A stretch of 44,632 bases of DNA, from assembly GCA_031490075.1 (NCBI GenBank), contig GCA_031490075.1_4354.1, one strand, 5' to 3'. Source of the stretch: a phage. How positions within the stretch are numbered: the stretch's first letter is position 1; every line of letters starts with the position of its first letter. Under the pieces are notes generated by a model, which searched no databases, was not told the origin of the DNA, and saw only the letters and a program-made list of their open reading frames with translations. The position numbers were made by a program, and so were the translations under genes. This document shows, in pieces, positions 4,343-30,543 of the stretch.

Positions 4343-6628
4343 ATGTCCGATGTAATTTTATCCTACTCGTGGTCACGCCGCAACGCGCGGGCGGGAAAAA
4401 AGGATATAAATGTCAGAACCGCACACACGGCAACACTGGACGACCTGAAAGAGTTAATCCAGCCGCTCGATGCCGTTCGCGACGGGATTAACCCTAAGAC
4501 CGCGCCCGGTTATATCACCGCCGCGTGCGACTCAACGCACAGCACCGTAAAAGACCCGGAAACTGGAGACTTTAAGCAAGCGCGTAAAGGTTTTTTCTAC
4601 CGCTGCGATGCGTCTGTAAGCAAATCGTCGCTGGCCTATCTGGATTTCGACAGCACAACACCGGAAGAGTATCAGGAAGCGGTGCGCCTGGTTAAGCGCA
4701 GCCGCCGGGCTATGTGCCTCTATACTACGGCGTCACATACCGATGAGTCTCCGCGCTTTCGCGTCGTCATGCCGCTGGCCCGTCCTGTTGAAGGCGGCGA
4801 CATCATCCGCGTTCGCCATGGATTGTTGGAACACTTCTTCAAAGGCATGGGCGCTGACCGCAGCGGGTTCACTCTTTCACAACCGATGTACCTGCCGCCA
4901 GTTGGCTCTCAGGTTATCTGGTCACGCCGCAATGACCTGGTTAACCCTGACGAGTTACTGGAGGGCATACCGGATTACGAGGTGAGCAGCGCATCGGATT
5001 ACCAGATACCGGAAGAACTGCGCACCGCGTTTACGGATGCGTTCGAGGCACTCGCGTTCGAGTATGGCGGCGTCATGACACCGCGTGGCCTGAAAATGCC
5101 AGCTACGCCGGAACACGCAGAGAACTACAGCGACCCGACCCCGCGCCCGGATGACTTCCTGCTGTGCTTCCCGCGCGAGGGGTATGAAGCGCCTAACGTA
5201 ACCATGATCCACGACACTGACATCACGGCAACCGAAGGCATGTCGCCGAAAGAGGTGTGGAAATACGTGTGCGATGCGACCGGGCTGCCATTCAGTGAAG
5301 TGGCAGAGGCTATCGGATGGGGGGCGCGTGAATCTGTTTCATGCAGCCTCGACGACCTGGAAGACGACGAGGACCCAGAGGAAGATGAGTTACCGGAACC
5401 GGTAAAGGCTGATTTCGTCGTTGAGGGGTACATGCCGTCGGATTGCATCTGGGATATTGTCGGGGAATCTGGCACGTACAAATCGTTCTATACGCTGGGG
5501 ATGATGTACCTTAGCGCCGCCGGATACAGGTTTGCTGGGGCAGATACCCAGCGTTGCCATCACTTCTATATCGACGGTGAGGGTGGCGCCACCACACGAA
5601 CACGTATTGATGCACTCGCGGCTAAATATGGTGAGGAAGGTAAAGATTATGTACATGTCATCGATATGGGCGAAATACTCGCTACGCATGGTGATAAAAA
5701 AATTCCAGCTCTAATCCGCAGGATGCGCGAAACCGCAGTGGATGAACCTATTGGCATGGTTGCCTTCGACACCCTTAACCAGACGCTGGCCCTGACGATT
5801 GATAAGTTCGACGAGAACAGTTCATCAACGGCAATCGGTATGGGTAAAGTTATCGCCATCCTGAAAGAAGTGCGCGATGCAACTAAAGCCGCTGTCGGTG
5901 TCGTTCACCATACTCCGAAGGGCGGAAAGAAAGCCCGCGGCAGTGGAGCATTGTATGCGGGTGTCGACGTGGAACTGACAATCGAACGCGCTACCGACCG
6001 TCAGATAAACGTATACCACTCTAAATTTAAGCACGGGCCTCAGCAGAAGACGGTTGGCATGGTGCTGGAGTCGGTACAGTTCCGTGAAGCGCCGCCGCCT
6101 AAAGAATACCGAGCGGTTGAGTTCCTGGGTAGCACAGAGGAATACGGCACAATCGTAAACCTGGACCTGCCTGAACCACACAAGGCGCTTGTGTTGATGC
6201 CGTGGGGTTTCGAGCCGTTCAAAACTGACGAGGAGAAAGAGCGGGAAGAAGGGTTGACGAAAGAAGGTAAAGAAAATGTACGTAAAACCGTAGAGAACGC
6301 CGTCAACAGTTCGGAGGCCACGATACTCGCGGCGTTTGAACTGGCGGAAGGAACCTACAACGGCAACGAAGGCATCACAGTCGCCGCGGCGAATAAGCTC
6401 GCACAGTCAGACCCCAACGCAAAGGAGTTTAACTCCAAAGAAGCCATAGAACGCGGGAAGATTAAGAAAATGGTTGAGGCTGGGTATCTTGTTCCGGGTA
6501 CTGACGAAAACAATCAGATAATCCCAGGCCGTTACAGACTGAACACCATGATAACAGATAACAAGATTCCGAAGACAATATACGAACCGAATGAAATGCT
6601 GACAGTGACCGAGGAGGATTTGGAATGA
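4343..6628 (+). CDS. Replication protein with RecA-like ATPase domain (putative primase/helicase)
   Basis: 761 aa; Walker A-like GESGTYKS and downstream Walker B-like acidic motif in the C-terminal half; N-terminal domain of primase-like size; position in the replication module. Confidence 0.6.
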   Translation: MSDVILSYSWSRRNARAGKKDINVRTAHTATLDDLKELIQPLDAVRDGINPKTAPGYITAACDSTHSTVKDPETGDFKQARKGFFYRCDASVSKSSLAYLDFDSTTPEEYQEAVRLVKRSRRAMCLYTTASHTDESPRFRVVMPLARPVEGGDIIRVRHGLLEHFFKGMGADRSGFTLSQPMYLPPVGSQVIWSRRNDLVNPDELLEGIPDYEVSSASDYQIPEELRTAFTDAFEALAFEYGGVMTPRGLKMPATPEHAENYSDPTPRPDDFLLCFPREGYEAPNVTMIHDTDITATEGMSPKEVWKYVCDATGLPFSEVAEAIGWGARESVSCSLDDLEDDEDPEEDELPEPVKADFVVEGYMPSDCIWDIVGESGTYKSFYTLGMMYLSAAGYRFAGADTQRCHHFYIDGEGGATTRTRIDALAAKYGEEGKDYVHVIDMGEILATHGDKKIPALIRRMRETAVDEPIGMVAFDTLNQTLALTIDKFDENSSSTAIGMGKVIAILKEVRDATKAAVGVVHHTPKGGKKARGSGALYAGVDVELTIERATDRQINVYHSKFKHGPQQKTVGMVLESVQFREAPPPKEYRAVEFLGSTEEYGTIVNLDLPEPHKALVLMPWGFEPFKTDEEKEREEGLTKEGKENVRKTVENAVNSSEATILAAFELAEGTYNGNEGITVAAANKLAQSDPNAKEFNSKEAIERGKIKKMVEAGYLVPGTDENNQIIPGRYRLNTMITDNKIPKTIYEPNEMLTVTEEDLE

Positions 6629-7541: not shown

Positions 7542-8051
7542 ATGTTAGAGAAATTCTTAGTATTACTGGAACGTTTCGTAGTTGCGCATGAACTGATTGC
7601 TGCGAACAGTGCACGCCGTACTGAACTGCCGAAGGCTATCACGGCGCCATATGGTAAAGACGTCGACAGTGGTGTCGCAGAAACTGCAACAATCACGCCT
7701 ACTGTTGTAAAAGAAGAAACAAAAGAAATCCCGGTCGAGGGTGAAGACGTAGTTGACACTAAACCGGCGGAGGAAGATAAGCCAAAACGCAAGCCGCGTA
7801 AAGCTAAAGTAGAGGAACCTGCGCCAGAACCGGAAGAAGAGAAAGAAGAAGTCGATTACAAGTCTCTGCGTGACCAGATTCAGGCCATCGACGATGCAAT
7901 TAATGAAGGTCCTAGCGATGCCGCGTGCGATGATTCTGATGAACTGCTGGAAGAGTTCACAGGTAAGAAGATGAAGATTGCCGCGATTAAAGACGAAGAC
8001 CTGGTTGAGTACCTGGAACGCCTGACAGCAATCAAGAACAAGTATTTCTAA
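7542..8051 (+). CDS. Highly acidic hypothetical protein
   Basis: AGGAG upstream; long Glu/Asp/Lys-rich low-complexity region. Confidence 0.5.
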   Translation: MLEKFLVLLERFVVAHELIAANSARRTELPKAITAPYGKDVDSGVAETATITPTVVKEETKEIPVEGEDVVDTKPAEEDKPKRKPRKAKVEEPAPEPEEEKEEVDYKSLRDQIQAIDDAINEGPSDAACDDSDELLEEFTGKKMKIAAIKDEDLVEYLERLTAIKNKYF

Positions 8052-23724: not shown

Positions 23725-26013
23725 TTACTTGAAACCCGGCGCATTTCTTGTGGCCTTGCGGGCCTTGCTAATCTTACTGTTACTGTTCTGCAAAGAGGCA
23801 GCCACTTGCTCCTCGATGATGATACGCAAACGGCCTTCATCATCCTGCTCGGTGGATACGTTGCCGATTTGCGAACTCGTGTTGTTTACGATGGTAACAT
23901 TAGACGGTCCGGAAGAAGACCCGTTTTGCCCCATAATTTCTTTCATCTGCTGTGCGGTGCGTACACGTGACGCACCAGCGGGCATGATAACTTCTGGTTT
24001 ACCGCGTTCGGCGATGGTTGAAGCCTGCCCCGCGGATAACTGTCCGCCCTGTTCACGTGCGGACCTGATAGCGGAAATCTGCGCCATACCCGCCCCAACG
24101 GCAGCAGCGGCAGCTACAGGAGCCAGGAACGGGCCAACTACAGGGATAGCCGCCGTGGACTTGTACGCCTCGATAGCCGCGGTGTAAGTGGCTATGGTGG
24201 CCTGTACGATAGCGAATGCCTTATACGCACCAGAGGCCTCGCCCAACGCAGACCCGATGTTTGAGGCCATGTTACCGAAGGCGGTTGCCGTTGCGTCGGC
24301 ACGCTTGGTTGCGTATTGCTCATTGATGGCGTTAAGCGCGGCCTGATACTGCTTCTCACTAATAAGACCCTGCTCACGGTACTTATCGGCTACCGCCAGT
24401 TTCTGCTGTTCCTGGATGTCGAGAAGCTCAAGCTCAGTAGCGTTCTGGCCCATAATCTGAGCCATGAAGTCGTCGCCTTTCTGCTTTTTCTCCTGCCGTT
24501 CTTTCTCGCGCTTATCCAATTCATCTTGCCGTTTTTGCCCGGCTTCGAGGACGATAGCTGTTTTAGCTTGTTCATATTCTTTCAGGGACAACGCGCCCTG
24601 GCTGTAGAACTCTTTTGCCTTAGCCAGTTTCTGCTGTTCCTGCGCGTCGATAGCCTTTAACTCGTCGTTGTTCTGACGGGCCAAAGTGTCGAGGTAATCT
24701 TGCGCCTGATTCCGCAATTGCTCTGCTTTCTTGGCGGCGGCTTTTGCTGCTTTATCGTCGGCGTTTCCGGTGCTGCCAGTTCCGCCCTTTTTATTAACAA
24801 GGCTGGCTAAGTCAATTTCTTGCTTCTTACGCTCGTCGTACTGCTTGCGCTGTTCCTCAATTTCTTTCTTACGCTGCTTAGACCTGTCGGTAATGGCTTG
24901 GGATTCGGCCTCTGCACGTTTTATACTGGCGTCGTATGCGGCATCAGCCTCTGCAGTCAGTTTTTTAAATGTGAGCGCCGCCGTTTTGCTCGGGTCAAAC
25001 ACATCAGCAAGGGTCTGGCCTAACGCTACCGCGTAGCCGTCAATGCGCTGGAACCACGCAATAACCTCGTGGAATGTCTGCTGGATATCCGGCAACCACT
25101 CACGGATGGCATCCGGTATATCCCCCAGCGAGTCGGACATATCAACAGATTTGTCCTCGGTATCAAATGCCAGGTCATTCAGGGCATCAGAAATAAACTT
25201 GAACGACTCATTGAACAGTGTCACCCAATCCTGGAGCGTGGCGGAGATCTCATTGGACGCGATGGCGTCGGTGAGTGCGGTGATAGCATCTTCCGCTGTT
25301 GCCGCTTGTTCGCCTACGGCATCGCCAAAACCGGATTGCGCTACTGCAAGAACAAGACCATCGAAAGAGTCCGCCAGGCTGGATAACTGACCGTCTAAGG
25401 TCTTCGAGCGCGTCTCCATCGCCCCAGCGAAATCAGTGTTACCGATGTTTAGCAGGTATTTCTGAATCTCTTCGGAGTTCTTCTTAACAGTAGTCGTTAC
25501 GCCACGGAACGTGAAAGAAACCGTATCCGCCTGTTGCGACGACTTGATGCCGAACTCTTTTAAGCGCTCAAATTCAAATGTACTGGCGTCGGCAACTGCC
25601 TCAATCATCTGATTAAGGTCTTTACCCATAGCAGCCGCGGTGTTGCCGTAGGAGATTAATGCCTCTTTGCTGGGGTTCAGGCCGAGGGCTACAAGTTTAG
25701 TGAAGCCCTCAACCGCCTGGTTAAGCCCGTATGGAGTCTCTTTTGCGAACTGTTGCAGGACGCTGAAAGCCTTAGCCGCGTTCTCGGCGCTCCCAGTCAT
25801 TGTGATGAGGCCGGAGTTCAGTTTATCGAAGTTGCGCTGGGAGTCCACCAGCGCACTGAACACCTGCTTCGCGGTTTCCAGACTGACGACGGCAGCAGCA
25901 GCGGCCCCAGCCGCCTTAGTAAGCCCGTTCAGTTGTGATGTGGTTTTATCGACGCCGGTCGATGATACTCGTACTATCAAGCTAGCGGTATCAGCCATGA
26001 TTTCTACCTTCAA
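23725..26013 (-). CDS. Tail tape measure protein
   Basis: 762 aa, Ala/Gln/Glu-rich coiled-coil composition; position downstream of the chaperone pair. Confidence 0.85.
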   Translation of the reverse strand: MKVEIMADTASLIVRVSSTGVDKTTSQLNGLTKAAGAAAAAVVSLETAKQVFSALVDSQRNFDKLNSGLITMTGSAENAAKAFSVLQQFAKETPYGLNQAVEGFTKLVALGLNPSKEALISYGNTAAAMGKDLNQMIEAVADASTFEFERLKEFGIKSSQQADTVSFTFRGVTTTVKKNSEEIQKYLLNIGNTDFAGAMETRSKTLDGQLSSLADSFDGLVLAVAQSGFGDAVGEQAATAEDAITALTDAIASNEISATLQDWVTLFNESFKFISDALNDLAFDTEDKSVDMSDSLGDIPDAIREWLPDIQQTFHEVIAWFQRIDGYAVALGQTLADVFDPSKTAALTFKKLTAEADAAYDASIKRAEAESQAITDRSKQRKKEIEEQRKQYDERKKQEIDLASLVNKKGGTGSTGNADDKAAKAAAKKAEQLRNQAQDYLDTLARQNNDELKAIDAQEQQKLAKAKEFYSQGALSLKEYEQAKTAIVLEAGQKRQDELDKREKERQEKKQKGDDFMAQIMGQNATELELLDIQEQQKLAVADKYREQGLISEKQYQAALNAINEQYATKRADATATAFGNMASNIGSALGEASGAYKAFAIVQATIATYTAAIEAYKSTAAIPVVGPFLAPVAAAAAVGAGMAQISAIRSAREQGGQLSAGQASTIAERGKPEVIMPAGASRVRTAQQMKEIMGQNGSSSGPSNVTIVNNTSSQIGNVSTEQDDEGRLRIIIEEQVAASLQNSNSKISKARKATRNAPGFK

Positions 26014-26323
26014 AGATTGCTTCTAAGCCCATGATAATGTCTATCTCGAAAAGGCTAAGCTGTTTTTGCGTAACATCGAGATAGGCTTTCAGGTCTTGCC
26101 ACGTAACGGATTCTCTTGCGAACAATACTACAGCGTCCTCGCGCACGTGTCGCGTAAACTTAATGTCACAGTACGTCTCAAAGGTGGATATAAAAAGGGG
26201 CGGGCATTCTGGCCCACCCCGTCGCGCTGCACGTTTTTTCTTATCGATTACACCCATCGCGATAAGCGCCTGTTCGTGTCCGTCGGCTATAGAATCAAAC
26301 TCTCTGATTTTATGCTTATCCAC
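25991..26323 (-). CDS. Tail assembly chaperone, downstream frame (possible frameshift extension)
   Basis: Open frame is -1 relative to 26356..26775 and stays open across the junction; the only start in the track is a GTG. Confidence 0.5.
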   Translation of the reverse strand: MDKHKIREFDSIADGHEQALIAMGVIDKKKRAARRGGPECPPLFISTFETYCDIKFTRHVREDAVVLFARESVTWQDLKAYLDVTQKQLSLFEIDIIMGLEAIFEGRNHG

Positions 26324-26355
26324 AAACTCGTAGGTGGCGAACCTGTACAGCGCGT

Positions 26356-26775
26356 CTACTTTTCCTGTAATGCTTTACGTTCAGCGTTATGAAACGCCGC
26401 TACTTGTGTCCCAAGCCCTTTGAACTGGTCGAGCAATTTGTTAAACGCTTCCTTAGAGAAAGGCTCGTCGTCAAAGCTCCAGCCGTTTACGACTTCTGCC
26501 GCGAGTTGTCGGTTGAGGTCTTCCGCCAGTTCGTTAACCGACAGGTTGTACTCAGTATAGTCGCCGGATTCTTTGGCGGCTTTTTCCAGTTCTTCAAAGC
26601 GCGCCAACCCGCGACGGTACGCGATAATGAAAGCACGCCCCGCTTTAACGGCAGCATCTGCATCCGGGCTTACAACATTAAGCCACTCGCCAGAGTCTTC
26701 GCCGTTTGGTAGCAGAATCGGCATCTTCTTGCCTACCAGTGCTTTCTCTTCGTAATAAAAATCAGAAAGTTTCAT
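26356..26775 (-). CDS. Tail assembly chaperone (gpG-like)
   Basis: Position between the major tail gene and the tape measure gene; ends in GGAAAAG-TAG. Confidence 0.55.
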   Translation of the reverse strand: MKLSDFYYEEKALVGKKMPILLPNGEDSGEWLNVVSPDADAAVKAGRAFIIAYRRGLARFEELEKAAKESGDYTEYNLSVNELAEDLNRQLAAEVVNGWSFDDEPFSKEAFNKLLDQFKGLGTQVAAFHNAERKALQEK

Positions 26776-26884
26776 TCTTTAATCCTTTGGTTAAGAGGTT
26801 ACGGGTTAACGATAAATGCGCCAGACGGGAACCACCCGCTTTTCGTGTGCGACACTAGGCGCAAAAATTATTCTACCACAATAC

Positions 26885-26913
26885 TTGCACACCCCAATAT
26901 AATAGGGTACTAT
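26885..26913 (+). promoter_or_regulatory. Sigma70-like promoter with embedded palindrome (TTGCAC-N17-TACTAT)
   Basis: TTGCAC, 17-bp spacer, TACTAT; AATAG-N4-CTATT at 26901-26914; GGAGGGG SD follows. Confidence 0.65.
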
Positions 26914-26943
26914 TCACTTACACCAACAATGGAGGGGTTTAAA

Positions 26944-27135
26944 ATGTCCAGTTTACCAGTTTCCTTAATTCTGTTTGCACTGCTCGCTTATTTCGCGCCT
27001 TTCCTGGTTGCGTATTTCCGTAACCATAAAGCGAAATTAGCGATATTCATGGCTAATCTGTTTCTTGGATGGGTTCTGCTGCCGTGGGTATTTATTTTAA
27101 TCTGGGCTTGCAACTCGAATGTCAAAGAGAAGTGA
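26944..27135 (+). CDS. Small membrane protein (two predicted helices)
   Basis: 63 aa, mostly hydrophobic; start placed at ATG 26944 downstream of the promoter (the longest ORF from 26845 would include the promoter). Confidence 0.5.
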   Translation: MSSLPVSLILFALLAYFAPFLVAYFRNHKAKLAIFMANLFLGWVLLPWVFILIWACNSNVKEK

Positions 27136-27172
27136 GCTAGTATAGGACAAATCCTAAGCACGAGGAATAAAC

Positions 27173-28303
27173 ATGGCCCGGAAGAAAATAACCGACGAAC
27201 AGTTGCAGGAAGAATTGAACGCCGGTATGAAGAATGTAGATATCGCCCGTAAATACGGCATCTCAGACCGCGTAATTCGTATCCGTAAAGCGAAGCTGGC
27301 TAAGAAAGGCGTGGGCCACGGGCGCGACGTTAGCCACCTTGTGCCAGACGGCTACAAGATTAAAGGAACGTCGTCACTTGTGGACGAGTTCGGCAACACT
27401 AAGTTGCAATGGGTTAAGACTGATACCGACGCCGAACGTCAGGTTGAATTGATGAAAGCCGTAATAGAGGGCATGAAGTCAGAGATTACGCCCGTTGCGC
27501 CTGTTAAAGCGGCGCGCGCCAAACGTGACGACAAGCTACTCAATCTTTACACTGTATCTGATTTCCATCTCGGTATGCTGGCATGGGCCGATGAGAGCGG
27601 CGACGACTGGGACATGAAGATTGCAGAAGACCTGTTCTCTCGGTGGTTCGACGCGGCGTTTCAGAAAGCACCGGATGCAGGAACAGGAGTTATTAACCTG
27701 CTTGGGGACTTCGCACACTTCGATAGTCTTGATGCCGTTACCCCCGAGTAGCGCCATGTATTAGATGCGGATACTCGCTATCAGAAACTGGTACGTTACA
27801 TGATTCGTATGGTCCGCCGTGTTGTTGATATGGCGCTGGTTAAGCATCACACAGTAAAACTTTTAATCGTTCAAGGTAACCACGACCCTGTTGGCTCCGT
27901 ATGGCTTGCTGAAATGTTCACGGTTTTATACTCAAACGACAGCCGAGTGATTGTTGATACGTCGCCGGATGTTTACAAGATGGTGCAACACGGCAAAACG
28001 ACGCTGTTCTTCCATCACGGGCATAAAGCACGATTCGACGCTATCGAACCGGTTATGATTGCCAAGTTCCGTAAAGCGTTCGGCGAGAGTGTTTACAGCT
28101 ACGCCCACGTAGGCCATCTGCACCACCAGAAGATTGTAGAAAGCCGTAACATGATTGTTGAGCAACACCGCACCTTAGCGGCTAAAGACGCCTACGCCTC
28201 TCGCGGCGGATGGATGTCGGGCCGCAGTGCAAATGTAATTACTTATAGCGCCGAATATGGCGAGGTCGCACGTTTAACTATTTCACCGGAGATGCTGGGA
28301 TGA
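27173..28303 (+). CDS. Calcineurin-like metallophosphoesterase with N-terminal HTH-like region, interrupted by an in-frame TAG at 27749-27751
   Basis: Track ORFs 27173..27751 and 27800..28303 are in the same frame with a single TAG between them. Motifs SDFHLG and LLGDFAHFD lie upstream of the stop; QGNHD, HHGH and GHLHH lie downstream. Confidence 0.65.
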
Positions 28304-28788
28304 AAGATATTGTAATTTTCGATTTAGACGGGACATTGGCCGACGGTACCCATCGCTTACACCTGTTACCAAAAGATAACTACGGAGAAACGTGGGCGTG
28401 GAAGCCATTTAACATGGCCTGCAAAGATGACGCTCCGATATACGACAATATCCATTTGTGTAGCGTACTGTGGCATTCCGGACTTACTATAATTATCCTT
28501 ACCGGGCGAAGTGATGACGCTGAGGAGGAGACTCGCGAATGGTTACGAGAGAATAACGTTAGGTTTGACACGCTAATCATGCGCAGCAAACACGACAACA
28601 GAAAAGACATCGTAATTAAAGAAGAGGTGTTGCGTGCTTTCGGACTGGAAAGAATCTTGTGTGCGTTCGACGACTCTCCAGCGGTAATAAAGCATTTCCG
28701 TGACCTCGGCATAACCGCACACGCAGTTACCGAATACGACTGTAACGGGAACTCTACACACTTAAAACCACACGGGAGCGATAAATAA
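28300..28788 (+). CDS. HAD-superfamily phosphatase (nucleotidase or polynucleotide 3'-phosphatase-like)
   Basis: N-terminal FDLDGTL is the HAD motif I; start overlaps the upstream stop. Confidence 0.7.
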   Translation: MKDIVIFDLDGTLADGTHRLHLLPKDNYGETWAWKPFNMACKDDAPIYDNIHLCSVLWHSGLTIIILTGRSDDAEEETREWLRENNVRFDTLIMRSKHDNRKDIVIKEEVLRAFGLERILCAFDDSPAVIKHFRDLGITAHAVTEYDCNGNSTHLKPHGSDK

Positions 28789-29342
28789 TGGCTAAGGTAA
28801 TTATTCTTAATGGCCCTGCGGGTTGCGGGAAAGACACGCTTGCTATGGCGCTGGTAGAAATGGGCTTTGCGAAAGGAACTACCAGTTTCAAGAATCCAAT
28901 GTTCAATATTGCTTTGGCAGCGTTAGGCCAGGATGCTTACCACGAATTTCTCGACGGCTACGACGACCGGGCGCGGAAAGAAAAACCAGAGGGTTTTCTT
29001 AATGGGTTGTCCCGCCGCCAGTTAATGATTGCCATTTCTGAGCAATTCATTAAACCGGTATTCGGCGATGATTATTTCGGTAAGTATCTTGCTGAAAACT
29101 TGCCTGACGGCGACGAAGTTTTTGTAGTGTCCGATGGTGGATTCGCCAGTGAAGTTGCCCCTATCGTCGCCGCGGGGCATGACGTGCGAATCGTCCGCCT
29201 CCATCGTGACGGCTATACGTTCATCTGCGATAGCCGTGGCTATCTGTACGATGTTAGTGGTGTAAAAGATTACGACACCTACATCATACCGGGTGACGTT
29301 AAATCGAACGTTATAGACATTGCTTTAAAATTAGGTTTGTAA
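28788..29342 (+). CDS. P-loop kinase (dNMP kinase-like)
   Basis: N-terminal VIILNGPAGCGKDT Walker A with the GKDT variant, which I recall from T4-type dNMP kinases. Confidence 0.55.
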   Translation: MAKVIILNGPAGCGKDTLAMALVEMGFAKGTTSFKNPMFNIALAALGQDAYHEFLDGYDDRARKEKPEGFLNGLSRRQLMIAISEQFIKPVFGDDYFGKYLAENLPDGDEVFVVSDGGFASEVAPIVAAGHDVRIVRLHRDGYTFICDSRGYLYDVSGVKDYDTYIIPGDVKSNVIDIALKLGL

Positions 29343-29348
29343 GAAAAA

Positions 29349-29370
29349 GGCCCCGAAAGGGGCCTTAGTT
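29349..29370. terminator. Bidirectional terminator
   Basis: GGCCCC-GAAA-GGGGCC flanked by A-run and T-run; between convergent genes. Confidence 0.7.
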
Positions 29371-30543
29371 TTATGCGTAGGTGATACGTTGAATTACGAT
29401 AGACGACTGGTACTGATTGCCGGTAGCCTGGCCTTCAATGGACTGAGTGATTGACTCAGGCCCACCAATCTCAGGTGTAACCGCCGTAAGCTCTGCACGT
29501 TTCAAACTGAAAGACATAGCCCCGTTTACCCCTGCCAGAATAGAGTTAATCTCTACCTGCTGCTCGTTGATAAACTTCTGAATCATCGCCATGTCGTACA
29601 GCTTGCCAGAGATAGAGAATGTGTTAGCTGCGCGTCCACGTTCGACGAACGCCACGCTACTGTTACCGAGTTCGAACTGCGCGGAAGCTCCGTTGTCGTT
29701 GGTGATGGTGAGAGTATCGCAACGCAACGGCGTGGAGCCATCGAACACCGACACATCTACCGACGAGAACGGCTCATCGGTGAACGTAACCTGAGAGAAA
29801 TCAGAGCCAGACGGCTGCGCGGTAAGAATCTCCTGACTCAGGCCGATGAACGGGAAGCTGCCGGTGACCATGGCGTTAACCGCCTGCTCTACGGTAAAGC
29901 CAGAGATTTCCACACCTTTGGTCAGCATGTACGCGTCCGGGTTACCACGCCGGCCCTTGAACCACGTCAGGATGGAGAACGTCTTACACGCGTTACCGGT
30001 TTCCAGCTTGTCGCCAGTTTTTGCGTCAGTGGTTACTGTCTCTGCTGTCAGCGTGTGCTGAATACCTGCGCCCGTAACTACCAGAGCGGAAACCGCGGTC
30101 ACGATAAACGGTTTTGCGTTGTCGCCGGCTAAGTCGGTGAACGCAATAAGGTCGCCAACTTCTACACCGTCAGTAATGAAGCTACCAGCAGCGCGGGTGA
30201 ATGTTTTACCTGCTGGGGTGACCGTAATTTCGGCGCCAGTAATCTCTACCCCAGCTTGCCACGTAGAAGCCATCGCTCCCGCAAGGAAATCATCCTGGCT
30301 ACGAGAGCTAAGTTCGATGGCGTACTCCCCGCTAACCTGTTTGTTGCCGGTTCGGATGGATGTAGTTTCACGGCTGCCGTCCAGTTCGTTGGAAGTCAGT
30401 GCATCGCGGGTTACAGCGGGAACGCCGCCCGTGTTACGCAACGGCGACCATACCGGGTTAGTCGGTGTTACGCCAGGGGTATTTTCCGCCACATAGAATT
30501 GCGCGGTATTCGCGCCCTTAAAAGGAGTTGTAGCCATATTCAC
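29371..30543 (-). CDS. Major tail protein
   Basis: 390 aa, Thr/Gly/Ala-rich; position immediately upstream (in transcription order) of the chaperones and tape measure. Confidence 0.65.
   Translation of the reverse strand: MNMATTPFKGANTAQFYVAENTPGVTPTNPVWSPLRNTGGVPAVTRDALTSNELDGSRETTSIRTGNKQVSGEYAIELSSRSQDDFLAGAMASTWQAGVEITGAEITVTPAGKTFTRAAGSFITDGVEVGDLIAFTDLAGDNAKPFIVTAVSALVVTGAGIQHTLTAETVTTDAKTGDKLETGNACKTFSILTWFKGRRGNPDAYMLTKGVEISGFTVEQAVNAMVTGSFPFIGLSQEILTAQPSGSDFSQVTFTDEPFSSVDVSVFDGSTPLRCDTLTITNDNGASAQFELGNSSVAFVERGRAANTFSISGKLYDMAMIQKFINEQQVEINSILAGVNGAMSFSLKRAELTAVTPEIGGPESITQSIEGQATGNQYQSSIVIQRITYA

Follow-up and report, generated by a model that had tools for sequence, protein, structure and literature searches.

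A metallophosphoesterase-phosphatase-kinase operon inside the tail module of a Kagunavirus genome: a tentative case for host-DNA breakdown and nucleotide salvage

Phages T1 and TLS break down the DNA of their hosts and reuse its nucleotides, and the genes that do so are still without assignment (PMC11447400). In T5, the predicted metallophosphatase A1 is both necessary and sufficient for host DNA degradation and has been likened by the authors of that work to nucleases of double-strand-break repair and to proofreading subunits of polymerases (10.64898/2026.04.02.716235). A 2026 survey of 522 Drexlerviridae recorded an exonuclease of the metallophosphoesterase (MPE) type in 508 genomes (PMC13164509); in a subset of this family, genes for a polynucleotide kinase and a deoxynucleoside monophosphate (dNMP) kinase directly follow the "DNA repair exonuclease," an arrangement for which the authors suggest a better supply of nucleotides (PMC13164509, the KanT1 paper). 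Here we analyze a comparable set of genes at positions 26885 to 29370 of a phage DNA stretch of 44,632 nucleotides (contig GCA_031490075.1_4354.1 of assembly GCA_031490075.1; the whole stretch is referred to below as the window), where a superinfection immunity gene (imm) is followed on the plus strand by genes for a helix-turn-helix (HTH)-fused MPE, an HAD phosphatase, and a P-loop kinase.

We tentatively favor the reading that this cassette, lying antisense inside the tail module of a virulent Kagunavirus, is an early operon that serves to break down host DNA and salvage dNMPs, a proposal by analogy that we hold at somewhat less than even confidence. The accessory operon would be transcribed early by host RNA polymerase, and Imm, in the inner membrane, would block superinfecting phage as a co-transcribed exclusion function. 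The MPE would be a Mn2+/metal-dependent DNA nuclease that binds through its N-terminal HTH and cuts DNA, most likely the host chromosome. The HAD phosphatase, which is of the Pnkp type, would keep degradation going by stripping 3'-phosphates off the ends so formed or off 3'-dNMPs, and the dNMP-kinase-like enzyme would convert 5'-dNMPs to dNDPs, feeding phage DNA synthesis. The analysis below establishes a family or fold for each protein, the conservation of the catalytic motifs, a trio order that two phage lineages share, and the nucleotide-metabolism neighborhoods of kinase homologs; we infer the substrates, the choice of host DNA as the target, the early timing, and the coupling of the three activities.

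The locus itself has many published counterparts. A megablast search with positions 26800-29400 matched 318 phage records, the best being Escherichia phage vB_EcoS-22664BS2 (MZ234010; Guernseyvirinae, Kagunavirus), which covers 100% of the query at 97.7% identity; many Kagunavirus genomes come next, at 88-93%. On these sequence comparisons the window is a Kagunavirus (Guernseyvirinae) genome. In published Kagunavirus cassettes (vB_EcoS-22664BS2, K1G, K1ind1-3, Golestan, and vB_Eco_K-02) the four genes, their order, their strand, and their flanks are all alike, at 88-97.7% nucleotide identity to the window across the whole locus, and the products are labeled superinfection immunity protein, DNA repair exonuclease or metallophosphoesterase, polynucleotide kinase, and dNMP kinase. 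The window differs from them in two respects: it alone carries an amber codon in the MPE gene, and its block of imm, tail assembly chaperone (TAC), and tape measure protein (TMP) genes is a different mosaic allele (51.9-73% identity). A preliminary description made from the sequence alone had called the combination of genes and their placement unusual, but about 50 published Kagunavirus-type genomes share an identical arrangement, and the locus is a known, already annotated, subfamily-wide accessory operon of Kagunavirus and T1-like phages. Three findings are new here: the core gene carries a nonsense codon, the trio is syntenic with that of T1-like phages, and there is an architectural parallel with T5 A1. 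The MPE family is a concrete candidate for the T1-type genes of host-DNA degradation and recycling, and the synteny of MPE, HAD, and kinase genes leads to a testable three-step pathway.

The features of the locus are as follows.

25991-26323, minus strand: tail assembly chaperone gene (PF23812)
26356-26775, minus strand: tail assembly chaperone gene (PF08748)
26885-26913, plus strand: putative sigma-70 promoter, with -35 TTGCAC (26885-26890), a 17-nt spacer, and -10 TACTAT (26908-26913)
26944-27135, plus strand: Imm superinfection immunity protein, 63 aa (PF14373, phrog_1039), with a GGAGGGG ribosome-binding site upstream
27173-28303, plus strand: HTH-fused binuclear MPE, 376 codons, split by an amber codon (phrog_704, predicted fold, motifs)
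28300-28788, plus strand: stand-alone HAD phosphatase of the T4 Pnkp 3'-phosphatase clade, 162 aa (PF25109, phrog_415)
28788-29342, plus strand: P-loop nucleotide kinase, phage dNMP-kinase-like, 184 aa, with LNGPAGCGKDT (phrog_139, 1DEK fold match)
29347-29366, both strands: bidirectional intrinsic terminator, AAGGCCCC-GAAA-GGGGCCTT, common to the cassette and the convergent tail tube gene
29371-30543, minus strand: tail tube gene (PF18906)

In the list of open reading frames (ORFs) the cassette appears as five plus-strand entries (26944-27135, 27173-27751, 27800-28303, 28300-28788, and 28788-29342). That co-oriented genes lie antisense between the tail chaperone and tail genes, as had been proposed, is borne out by the ORF map and by the Pfam matches of the flanking genes (PF08748, PF23812, and PF18906), and the proposed gene identities were essentially right, profile searches having returned Imm_superinfect, an HTH plus a calcineurin-like phosphoesterase, HAD_PNKP, and a P-loop kinase (GPAGCGKDT). 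In the well-annotated relative vB_Eco_K-02, the replication genes are on one strand and the structural genes are all on the opposite strand; the cassette is the main block within the structural module that is oriented like the replication genes. The last three genes are translationally coupled, by ATGA at 28300-28303 (MPE stop and HAD start) and by TAATG at 28786-28790 (HAD stop and kinase start). At 0.47-0.49, the cassette is just a little lower in GC than its flanks (0.50-0.56); this lends no support to a recent foreign origin, which we considered and set aside.

Conservation of the enzyme trio

The order MPE-HAD-kinase is kept in T1-like phages (contigs L004 and L006 and Webervirus IMGroot) at 43%, 50%, and 51% identity. 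In these Drexlerviridae, represented by Webervirus IMGroot gp38-40 and by phage TR1-type contigs, the three genes are orthologous to those of the window and stand in the same order, but they lie in a replication/lysis region, not in a tail module, and no imm gene precedes them. Such synteny argues for a functional link, and on sequence comparison the trio behaves as a linked module.

A different account of the same gene order would be that the locus does not serve one pathway but is an insertion-tolerant hot spot, in which independent accessory genes (exclusion, nuclease, and nucleotide enzymes) are co-transcribed from one promoter. The MPE gene is constant there and its neighbors are swappable, as this account would have it. 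In the position of imm, vB_VIPECOTPH05A has an unrelated 108-aa protein. Downstream, the MPE gene is kept with other genes in a Jerseyvirus-like Salmonella phage, in Kagunavirus JSSK01, and in vB_VIPECOTPH05A; what follows it there is either a gene pair encoding a 76-aa protein and an Ant-like protein of 223 aa, in some cases with an HNH gene, or a set of three small ORFs. In Dhillonvirus HK578 it stands alone. A mosaic junction separates imm (73% identity to the closest genome) from the trio (99.5-100%), and in many large phages a member of the kinase family is present on its own. The overlapping, coupled start and stop codons argue against a collection of independent genes, as does the retention of the MPE-HAD-kinase order at 43-51% identity across Guernseyvirinae and Drexlerviridae, and we consider this account unlikely.

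The comparison with relatives that the preliminary description had called for, on whether the cassette is variably present, found the MPE gene constant and the HAD, kinase, and imm genes replaced in some genomes. Its term "self-contained" was thus an overstatement for a subfamily-wide locus with a constant MPE, swappable neighbors, and an imm gene of other mosaic history. We interpret the MPE, from these gene arrangements, as the constant core of the locus and the HAD and kinase genes as an optional pair that has repeatedly traveled along with it.

Predicted activities of the three enzymes

The full length of the MPE is matched by phrog_704, "DNA repair exonuclease" (E 1.2e-162), while its Pfam matches fall under the cutoff (Metallophos_2, 22.0 versus 27; Metallophos, 17.2 versus 21.5). 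Its family comprised 4,584 cluster representatives in an exhaustive search, mostly of 370-400 aa, and is present in 2,015 of 50,697 phage records. When motif conservation was scored in an alignment of 56 family members of 33-50% identity, D130-x-H132, G178-D179, G235-N236-H237-D238, H282, and G314-H315-x-H317 were invariant or nearly so; the window encodes all five metallophosphoesterase motifs (DxH, GD, GNH[DE], H, and GHxH), with the amber codon separating the first two from the last three. An AF2 model, built from the family alignment on the intact allele P0001, has a pLDDT of 92.5; three helices make up its N-terminal domain (residues 8-44), and a beta-hairpin and a helix (61-102) precede the catalytic sandwich. 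The model matched many metallophosphoesterase structures with a probability of 1.00 and E values down to 1e-8, and motifs and predicted fold together place the protein in the binuclear (calcineurin-like) metallophosphoesterase superfamily. The top Foldseek matches in the PDB were the archaeal PolD DP1 proofreading exonuclease, Rv0805, and Mre11 of T. maritima and M. jannaschii, with YfcE and GpdQ lower. At the N terminus there is a weak match to a GerE/LuxR-type HTH; an N-terminal HTH is conserved across the family, and database annotations call it a winged-HTH or a sigma-70 region 4 domain. The predicted fold is that of a phosphodiesterase, its structural neighbors lean toward nucleases, and the HTH points to DNA; the substrate named here is a prediction.

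Mre11/SbcD, archaeal PolD DP1, and the MPE of P. putida share with the window's protein the binuclear metallophosphoesterase fold and motifs. Mre11/SbcD and DP1 are top structural or weak profile matches only, at a TM of about 0.4 (Mre11, about 0.43) and 12-15% identity, and single-sequence and profile searches against PDB sequences returned nothing significant (T. maritima Mre11/SbcD, E 0.5-2.8). Unlike these three, the MPE here has no Rad50/SbcC or polymerase partner and carries a unique N-terminal module of HTH plus beta-hairpin. No Rad50/SbcC-like partner is annotated in vB_Eco_K-02, and all large ORFs of the window map to other functions. With neither that partner nor significant profile similarity, we rejected an identification of the MPE as an Mre11/SbcD repair nuclease proper.

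A looser form of this idea is that the three enzymes process ends during the phage's own replication or recombination, with an SbcD/Mre11-like MPE, an HAD enzyme that cleans blocked 3' ends, and a kinase with a general precursor role. It agrees with the annotation of PHROG 704 and of phrog_284 as exonucleases, with the presence of Mre11 and DP1 among the structural neighbors, and with the T1-like arrangement, where the trio stands in the replication region after genes for helicase, VRR-NUC, and Dam. It also finds a parallel in the P. putida MPE, a nuclease of this superfamily encoded in a repair operon, which is reported to leave mixed 3'-PO4 and 3'-OH ends that would need a 3'-phosphatase (PMC7826289). 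Yet a Rad50/SbcC-like partner is neither annotated in the close relative nor mapped in the window, a separate 412-aa exonuclease is already present in the replication module, and a nonsense mutation in the MPE gene is tolerated in a genome that looks complete. In our judgment the processing of phage DNA is an improbable role for the trio.

The kinase matches phrog_139, "deoxynucleoside monophosphate kinase" (E 2.1e-44), and no Pfam family above threshold, AAA_18 being a subthreshold match only. An AF2 model (pLDDT 93.9), for which 52 diverse sequences of as little as 33% identity were aligned, has the T4 dNMP kinase 1DEK as its best PDB match (E 1.6e-5, TM 0.65), followed by adenylate-kinase-like enzymes; T4 Pnkp was absent among the top 50 structural matches. 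T4 gene 1, like the kinase gene here, stands among morphogenesis genes. At the sequence level, the likeness to T4 gp1 is limited to 19% identity and to N-terminal profile similarity, hhalign giving 65% probability over the N-terminal 73 columns only. The family occurs in 1,535 phage records, and distant homologs adjoin genes for dCMP deaminase and ThyX or for thymidylate synthase and ribonucleotide reductase. The enzyme is of the nucleotide-kinase type and phage dNMP-kinase-like, with a predicted specificity for dNMPs.

For the HAD phosphatase, the assignment is at the level of a named clade: it matches PF25109 HAD_PNKP (E 3.3e-20; 73.1 bits against a cutoff of 27.6) over profile positions 2-140 of 143 and phrog_415 at E 3e-64, and its solved relatives by sequence are Pnkp1 (4xrp, E 4e-6) and the phosphatase domain of T4 Pnkp (5uj0 and 1ltq). 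The DLDGT motif lies at residues 8-12, and TGRS, DNRKD, and FDDS align with SGRE, DTRKD, and IDDR of T4 Pnkp. T4 Pnkp (pseT) thus supplies the phosphatase domain family to which this protein belongs, matched both above the Pfam cutoff and at the sequence level. The alignment covers the phosphatase domain only (T4 residues 194-297), with no kinase domain, and for this reason the database label "polynucleotide kinase" on the 162-aa protein is an over-annotation. Unlike T4 Pnkp, the HAD protein is not fused to a Pnk kinase, and an RNA ligase partner is absent. We rejected a bifunctional polynucleotide kinase-phosphatase, since a Pnk-type kinase is neither fused nor adjacent.

These relatives bring RNA repair into consideration. 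The trio would heal RNA (tRNA) ends cut by anticodon nucleases, with the MPE opening 2',3'-cyclic phosphates, the HAD enzyme acting as the 3'-phosphatase, the kinase acting on 5'-OH ends, and a host ligase sealing the break. The nearest solved relatives of the HAD protein are RNA-repair enzymes (Pnkp1, 4xrp, and T4 Pnkp), and the metallophosphoesterase domain of bacterial Pnkp is reported to act as a 2',3'-phosphoesterase beside a P-loop kinase (PMC2190708, PMC3675462). However, the kinase here resembles nucleotide kinases (T4 gp1 and adenylate kinases) and is not Pnk-like, the MPE has an HTH of DNA-binding type and nuclease-type structural neighbors, and most often the HAD and kinase genes do not accompany it. 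Neither vB_Eco_K-02 nor vB_EcoS-22664BS2, to whose genes the window ORFs map, has an annotated ligase, and the window has no tRNA genes. RNA end healing is very unlikely on this evidence.

Counter-defense would be another use for the same enzymes: the MPE would hydrolyze cyclic or signaling nucleotides, or the HAD enzyme and kinase would buffer dNMP/dNTP pools against depletion or remove alarm nucleotides, m6dAMP for example. One of the best fold matches is Rv0805, a cyclic-nucleotide phosphodiesterase, and bacterial defenses pair a calcineurin-like enzyme with an HAD phosphatase acting on nucleotides and sense m6dAMP. Against this, none of the four proteins had a PADLOC match at E <= 0.01, the HAD protein is of the PNKP type and not of the type found in defense systems (PF13419), and the conserved HTH argues for a DNA-bound enzyme. 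We regard a counter-defense role as most unlikely.

A proposed role in host-DNA breakdown and nucleotide salvage

The preliminary description had offered two functions for the enzyme set, a module for host-DNA degradation and dNMP handling analogous to T5 A1 and dmp, and an RNA end-repair module. The second is unlikely, as set out above; the first is better supported because the kinase resembles T4 dNMP kinase, because of the nucleotide-metabolism neighborhoods of its homologs, and because the MPE resembles DP1 and Mre11. T5 serves as the functional model, and its likeness to the cassette is one of architecture: A1 too has an HTH-like region at its N terminus. The structural relatives named for A1 belong to the same enzyme classes as the neighbors of the MPE (DP1 exonuclease and Mre11), the C-terminal region of A1 contains DxH, NHD, and GHxH motifs, and some relatives of A1 (45-49% identity, on contigs of other sizes) have N-terminal HTH Pfam domains, that is, the same HTH-plus-MPE architecture as here. 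Around motif III the two proteins are locally similar (SNHDLALSRWL against GNHDPVGSVWL). The two differ in size and apparent importance, A1 being an essential protein of 556 aa and the MPE a protein of 376 aa that is evidently dispensable. They differ as well in what follows the cut: T5 Dmp destroys 5'-dNMPs, whereas the kinase of the cassette would conserve them, and the HAD enzyme here is of the 3'-phosphatase type. By this analogy, the logic of the cassette is one of salvage and not of disposal as with T5 Dmp.

Several observations weigh against host-DNA breakdown and salvage as the function of the operon. Profile-profile comparison left the catalytic domains of the MPE and A1 unaligned: hhalign of the MPE family with T5 A1 covered 19 columns around NHD (20% probability), and with a 28-sequence A1 alignment only the N-terminal HTH region was aligned (34.5% probability). 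We therefore rejected membership of the MPE in the A1 family beyond the superfamily level, and we regard the relation, as judged from these alignments, as one of architecture and superfamily, that of a functional analog or superfamily relative. The fold leaves the substrate unfixed, its neighbors including Rv0805, a cyclic-nucleotide phosphodiesterase, as well as YfcE and GpdQ, and the HAD clade is best known for the healing of both RNA and DNA ends. Most MPE-bearing phages (Jerseyvirus-like phages, Dhillonvirus, and some Kagunaviruses) are without the HAD and kinase genes, and the MPE is therefore independent of them. The promoter fits the consensus weakly, and host-DNA degradation by Kagunaviruses is itself our presumption. 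Our literature search found no assay for members of PHROG 704 or of the HAD or kinase subgroup and no functional study of these Guernseyvirinae genes.

Host-DNA breakdown would also connect the locus with antiphage defense. Metis and PUA-Cal-HAD sense m6dAMP released by phage-driven chromosome degradation, and phages that escape them carry null mutations in the nuclease gene denA (T4, T6, and T2) (two 2025-26 preprints). If the MPE is a host-DNA nuclease, the amber allele of the window, and the deleted and split alleles described below, could speculatively be selected like the denA nulls. A broader proposal, again by analogy, is that the HTH-MPE of PHROG 704 is the host-chromosome nuclease of T1-like phages, Dhillonvirus, and Guernseyvirinae alike, with the HAD enzyme and kinase as an optional salvage arm and null alleles as escapes from defense; in this full form we consider it quite unlikely. 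The amber allele of this genome would be a natural nonsense mutant and a ready-made experimental control, including for defenses that sense host-DNA degradation.

Disrupted alleles, control regions, and mosaicism

The MPE gene is not intact in the window: the preliminary description had missed an in-frame TAG at positions 27749-27751, where codon 193 changes from TCG (serine) to TAG. The ORFs at 27173-27751 and 27800-28303 are in the same frame and correspond to a 192-aa N-terminal product with the HTH and motifs I-II and a 167-aa product with motifs III-V; neither fragment, on the motif assignments, has a complete active site. Ser193 belongs to a conserved loop, VTPxSGHxLDAD, that separates metal-binding motifs II and III. 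The vB_EcoS-22664BS2 gene is a single 376-codon ORF with TCG at this position, and 2 of 1,131 nucleotides differ between the two genes, one of them being the nonsense change. The best 120 database relatives listed all have an intact MPE, of 376 aa or with an N-terminal extension. The exact amber allele was not found in IMG/VR and is recorded in one Logan assembly only (SRR24751126), a 44.7-kb contig of which corresponds to the window; on record in a single sample, it is a singleton and is not callable as a recurrent variant.

A second disrupted gene, as a sign of low assembly quality, was not found when the 53 annotated proteins of the closest genome were compared with the window by tblastn. 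The sole other difference of this type concerns an unrelated gene, that of an acidic 169-aa protein at 7542-8051, whose N-terminal third is rich in indels and which ends (TAA, 8049-8051) three codons before its vB_EcoS-22664BS2 homolog, a trivial change. No tRNA genes were found in the window, and the phage therefore encodes no amber suppressor. The TAG reflects either a genuine nonsense mutation of recent origin or an error in one base call; if it is genuine and amber codons go unsuppressed in the host, the module is probably crippled in this genome. Since the HAD start overlaps the normal MPE stop (ATGA), we infer that termination at the amber codon may also lower expression of the coupled HAD and kinase genes by polarity. 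A null MPE allele in an apparently complete assembled genome fits a nonessential takeover function.

Other disrupted alleles of the gene are on record. An MPE homolog of 98% identity (P0217) has an in-frame deletion of residues ~153-320 and another homolog (P0251) one of residues ~208-320; both deletions remove motifs III-V and rejoin at a short QKI/MKI repeat. In BFVD, the gene occurs as fragments in Salmonella phage 36, phiJLA23, KpV79, and RDJL Phi 1. Taken with the amber codon, these deletions and fragments suggest either recurrent loss of function or recurrent sequencing or annotation artifacts.

The proposed promoter (TTGCAC, 17 nt, TACTAT) matches 7 of 12 consensus positions and was not picked in the promoter scan. 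Its hexamers and spacing are kept in five aligned relatives, and Salmonella phage SE124_3H4 has TTGCAT-17 nt-TATTAT despite a different spacer sequence. Because hexamers and spacing are conserved even where the spacer differs, a promoter at 26885-26913 is plausible from sequence comparison. The palindrome that had been ascribed to this promoter did not hold up: the repeat finder detected no inverted repeat in the spacer, the right arm varies among close relatives (AGGG, AGTG, and AGCG), and we rejected an operator there. The bidirectional terminator, also part of that description, was recovered at 29347-29366 by a scan that found it on both strands, as an 8-bp hairpin with 6 of 8 pairs GC and T-rich tails on each side.

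Across Guernseyvirinae, the intergenic stretch that separates the cassette from the tail chaperone gene hardly varies. In several published relatives it is annotated with a 37-aa "hypothetical protein" (window 26787-26900, plus strand; 2988-3101 in contig L001), for which we rejected coding on account of frame-breaking single-base indels among relatives; this ORF is probably spurious, and the conservation of 26787-26900 probably noncoding. On the minus strand, the Rfam int-alpA RNA motif (RF02996) was matched over the full model at 26801-26865, as also in contigs L011 (2668-2732) and L001 (3001-3065). The match scored 31.9 bits in the window (gathering threshold 35.8; E 5e-4), 35.8 in vB_VIPECOTPH05A, and 31.6 in vB_EcoS-22664BS2; the folding energy of the element alone is unexceptional (z = 0.5). 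It lies just upstream of the TAC and TMP genes, which are downstream of the bidirectional terminator on the minus strand, and for that reason it may be part of the 5' leader or of the control of this late operon.

The first gene of the cassette is assigned by its matches to PF14373 Imm_superinfect (E 7.5e-13; 48.6 bits against a cutoff of 27.9; profile positions 2-42 of 42) and to phrog_1039, "immunity to superinfection" (E 1.4e-22), and two hydrophobic stretches are visible in its 63-aa sequence. Together with the tape measure gene and both chaperone ORFs (window 23725-27135), it has 51.9-73% identity to the closest genome (imm, 73%), whereas the MPE, HAD, and kinase genes (27173-29342) have 99.5-100%. 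Given this jump in identity, imm and the MPE gene must, by sequence comparison, be separated by a recombination junction, at roughly 27135-27173.

Elsewhere in the window, the helicase-primase-like gene at 5417-6625 has 32% identity to the closest genome over its C-terminal half, and the tailspike at 18195-18875 matches it only over the N-terminal 233 residues (62%). Both differences appear from these comparisons to be further mosaic replacements, that of the tailspike probably reflecting a different host receptor.

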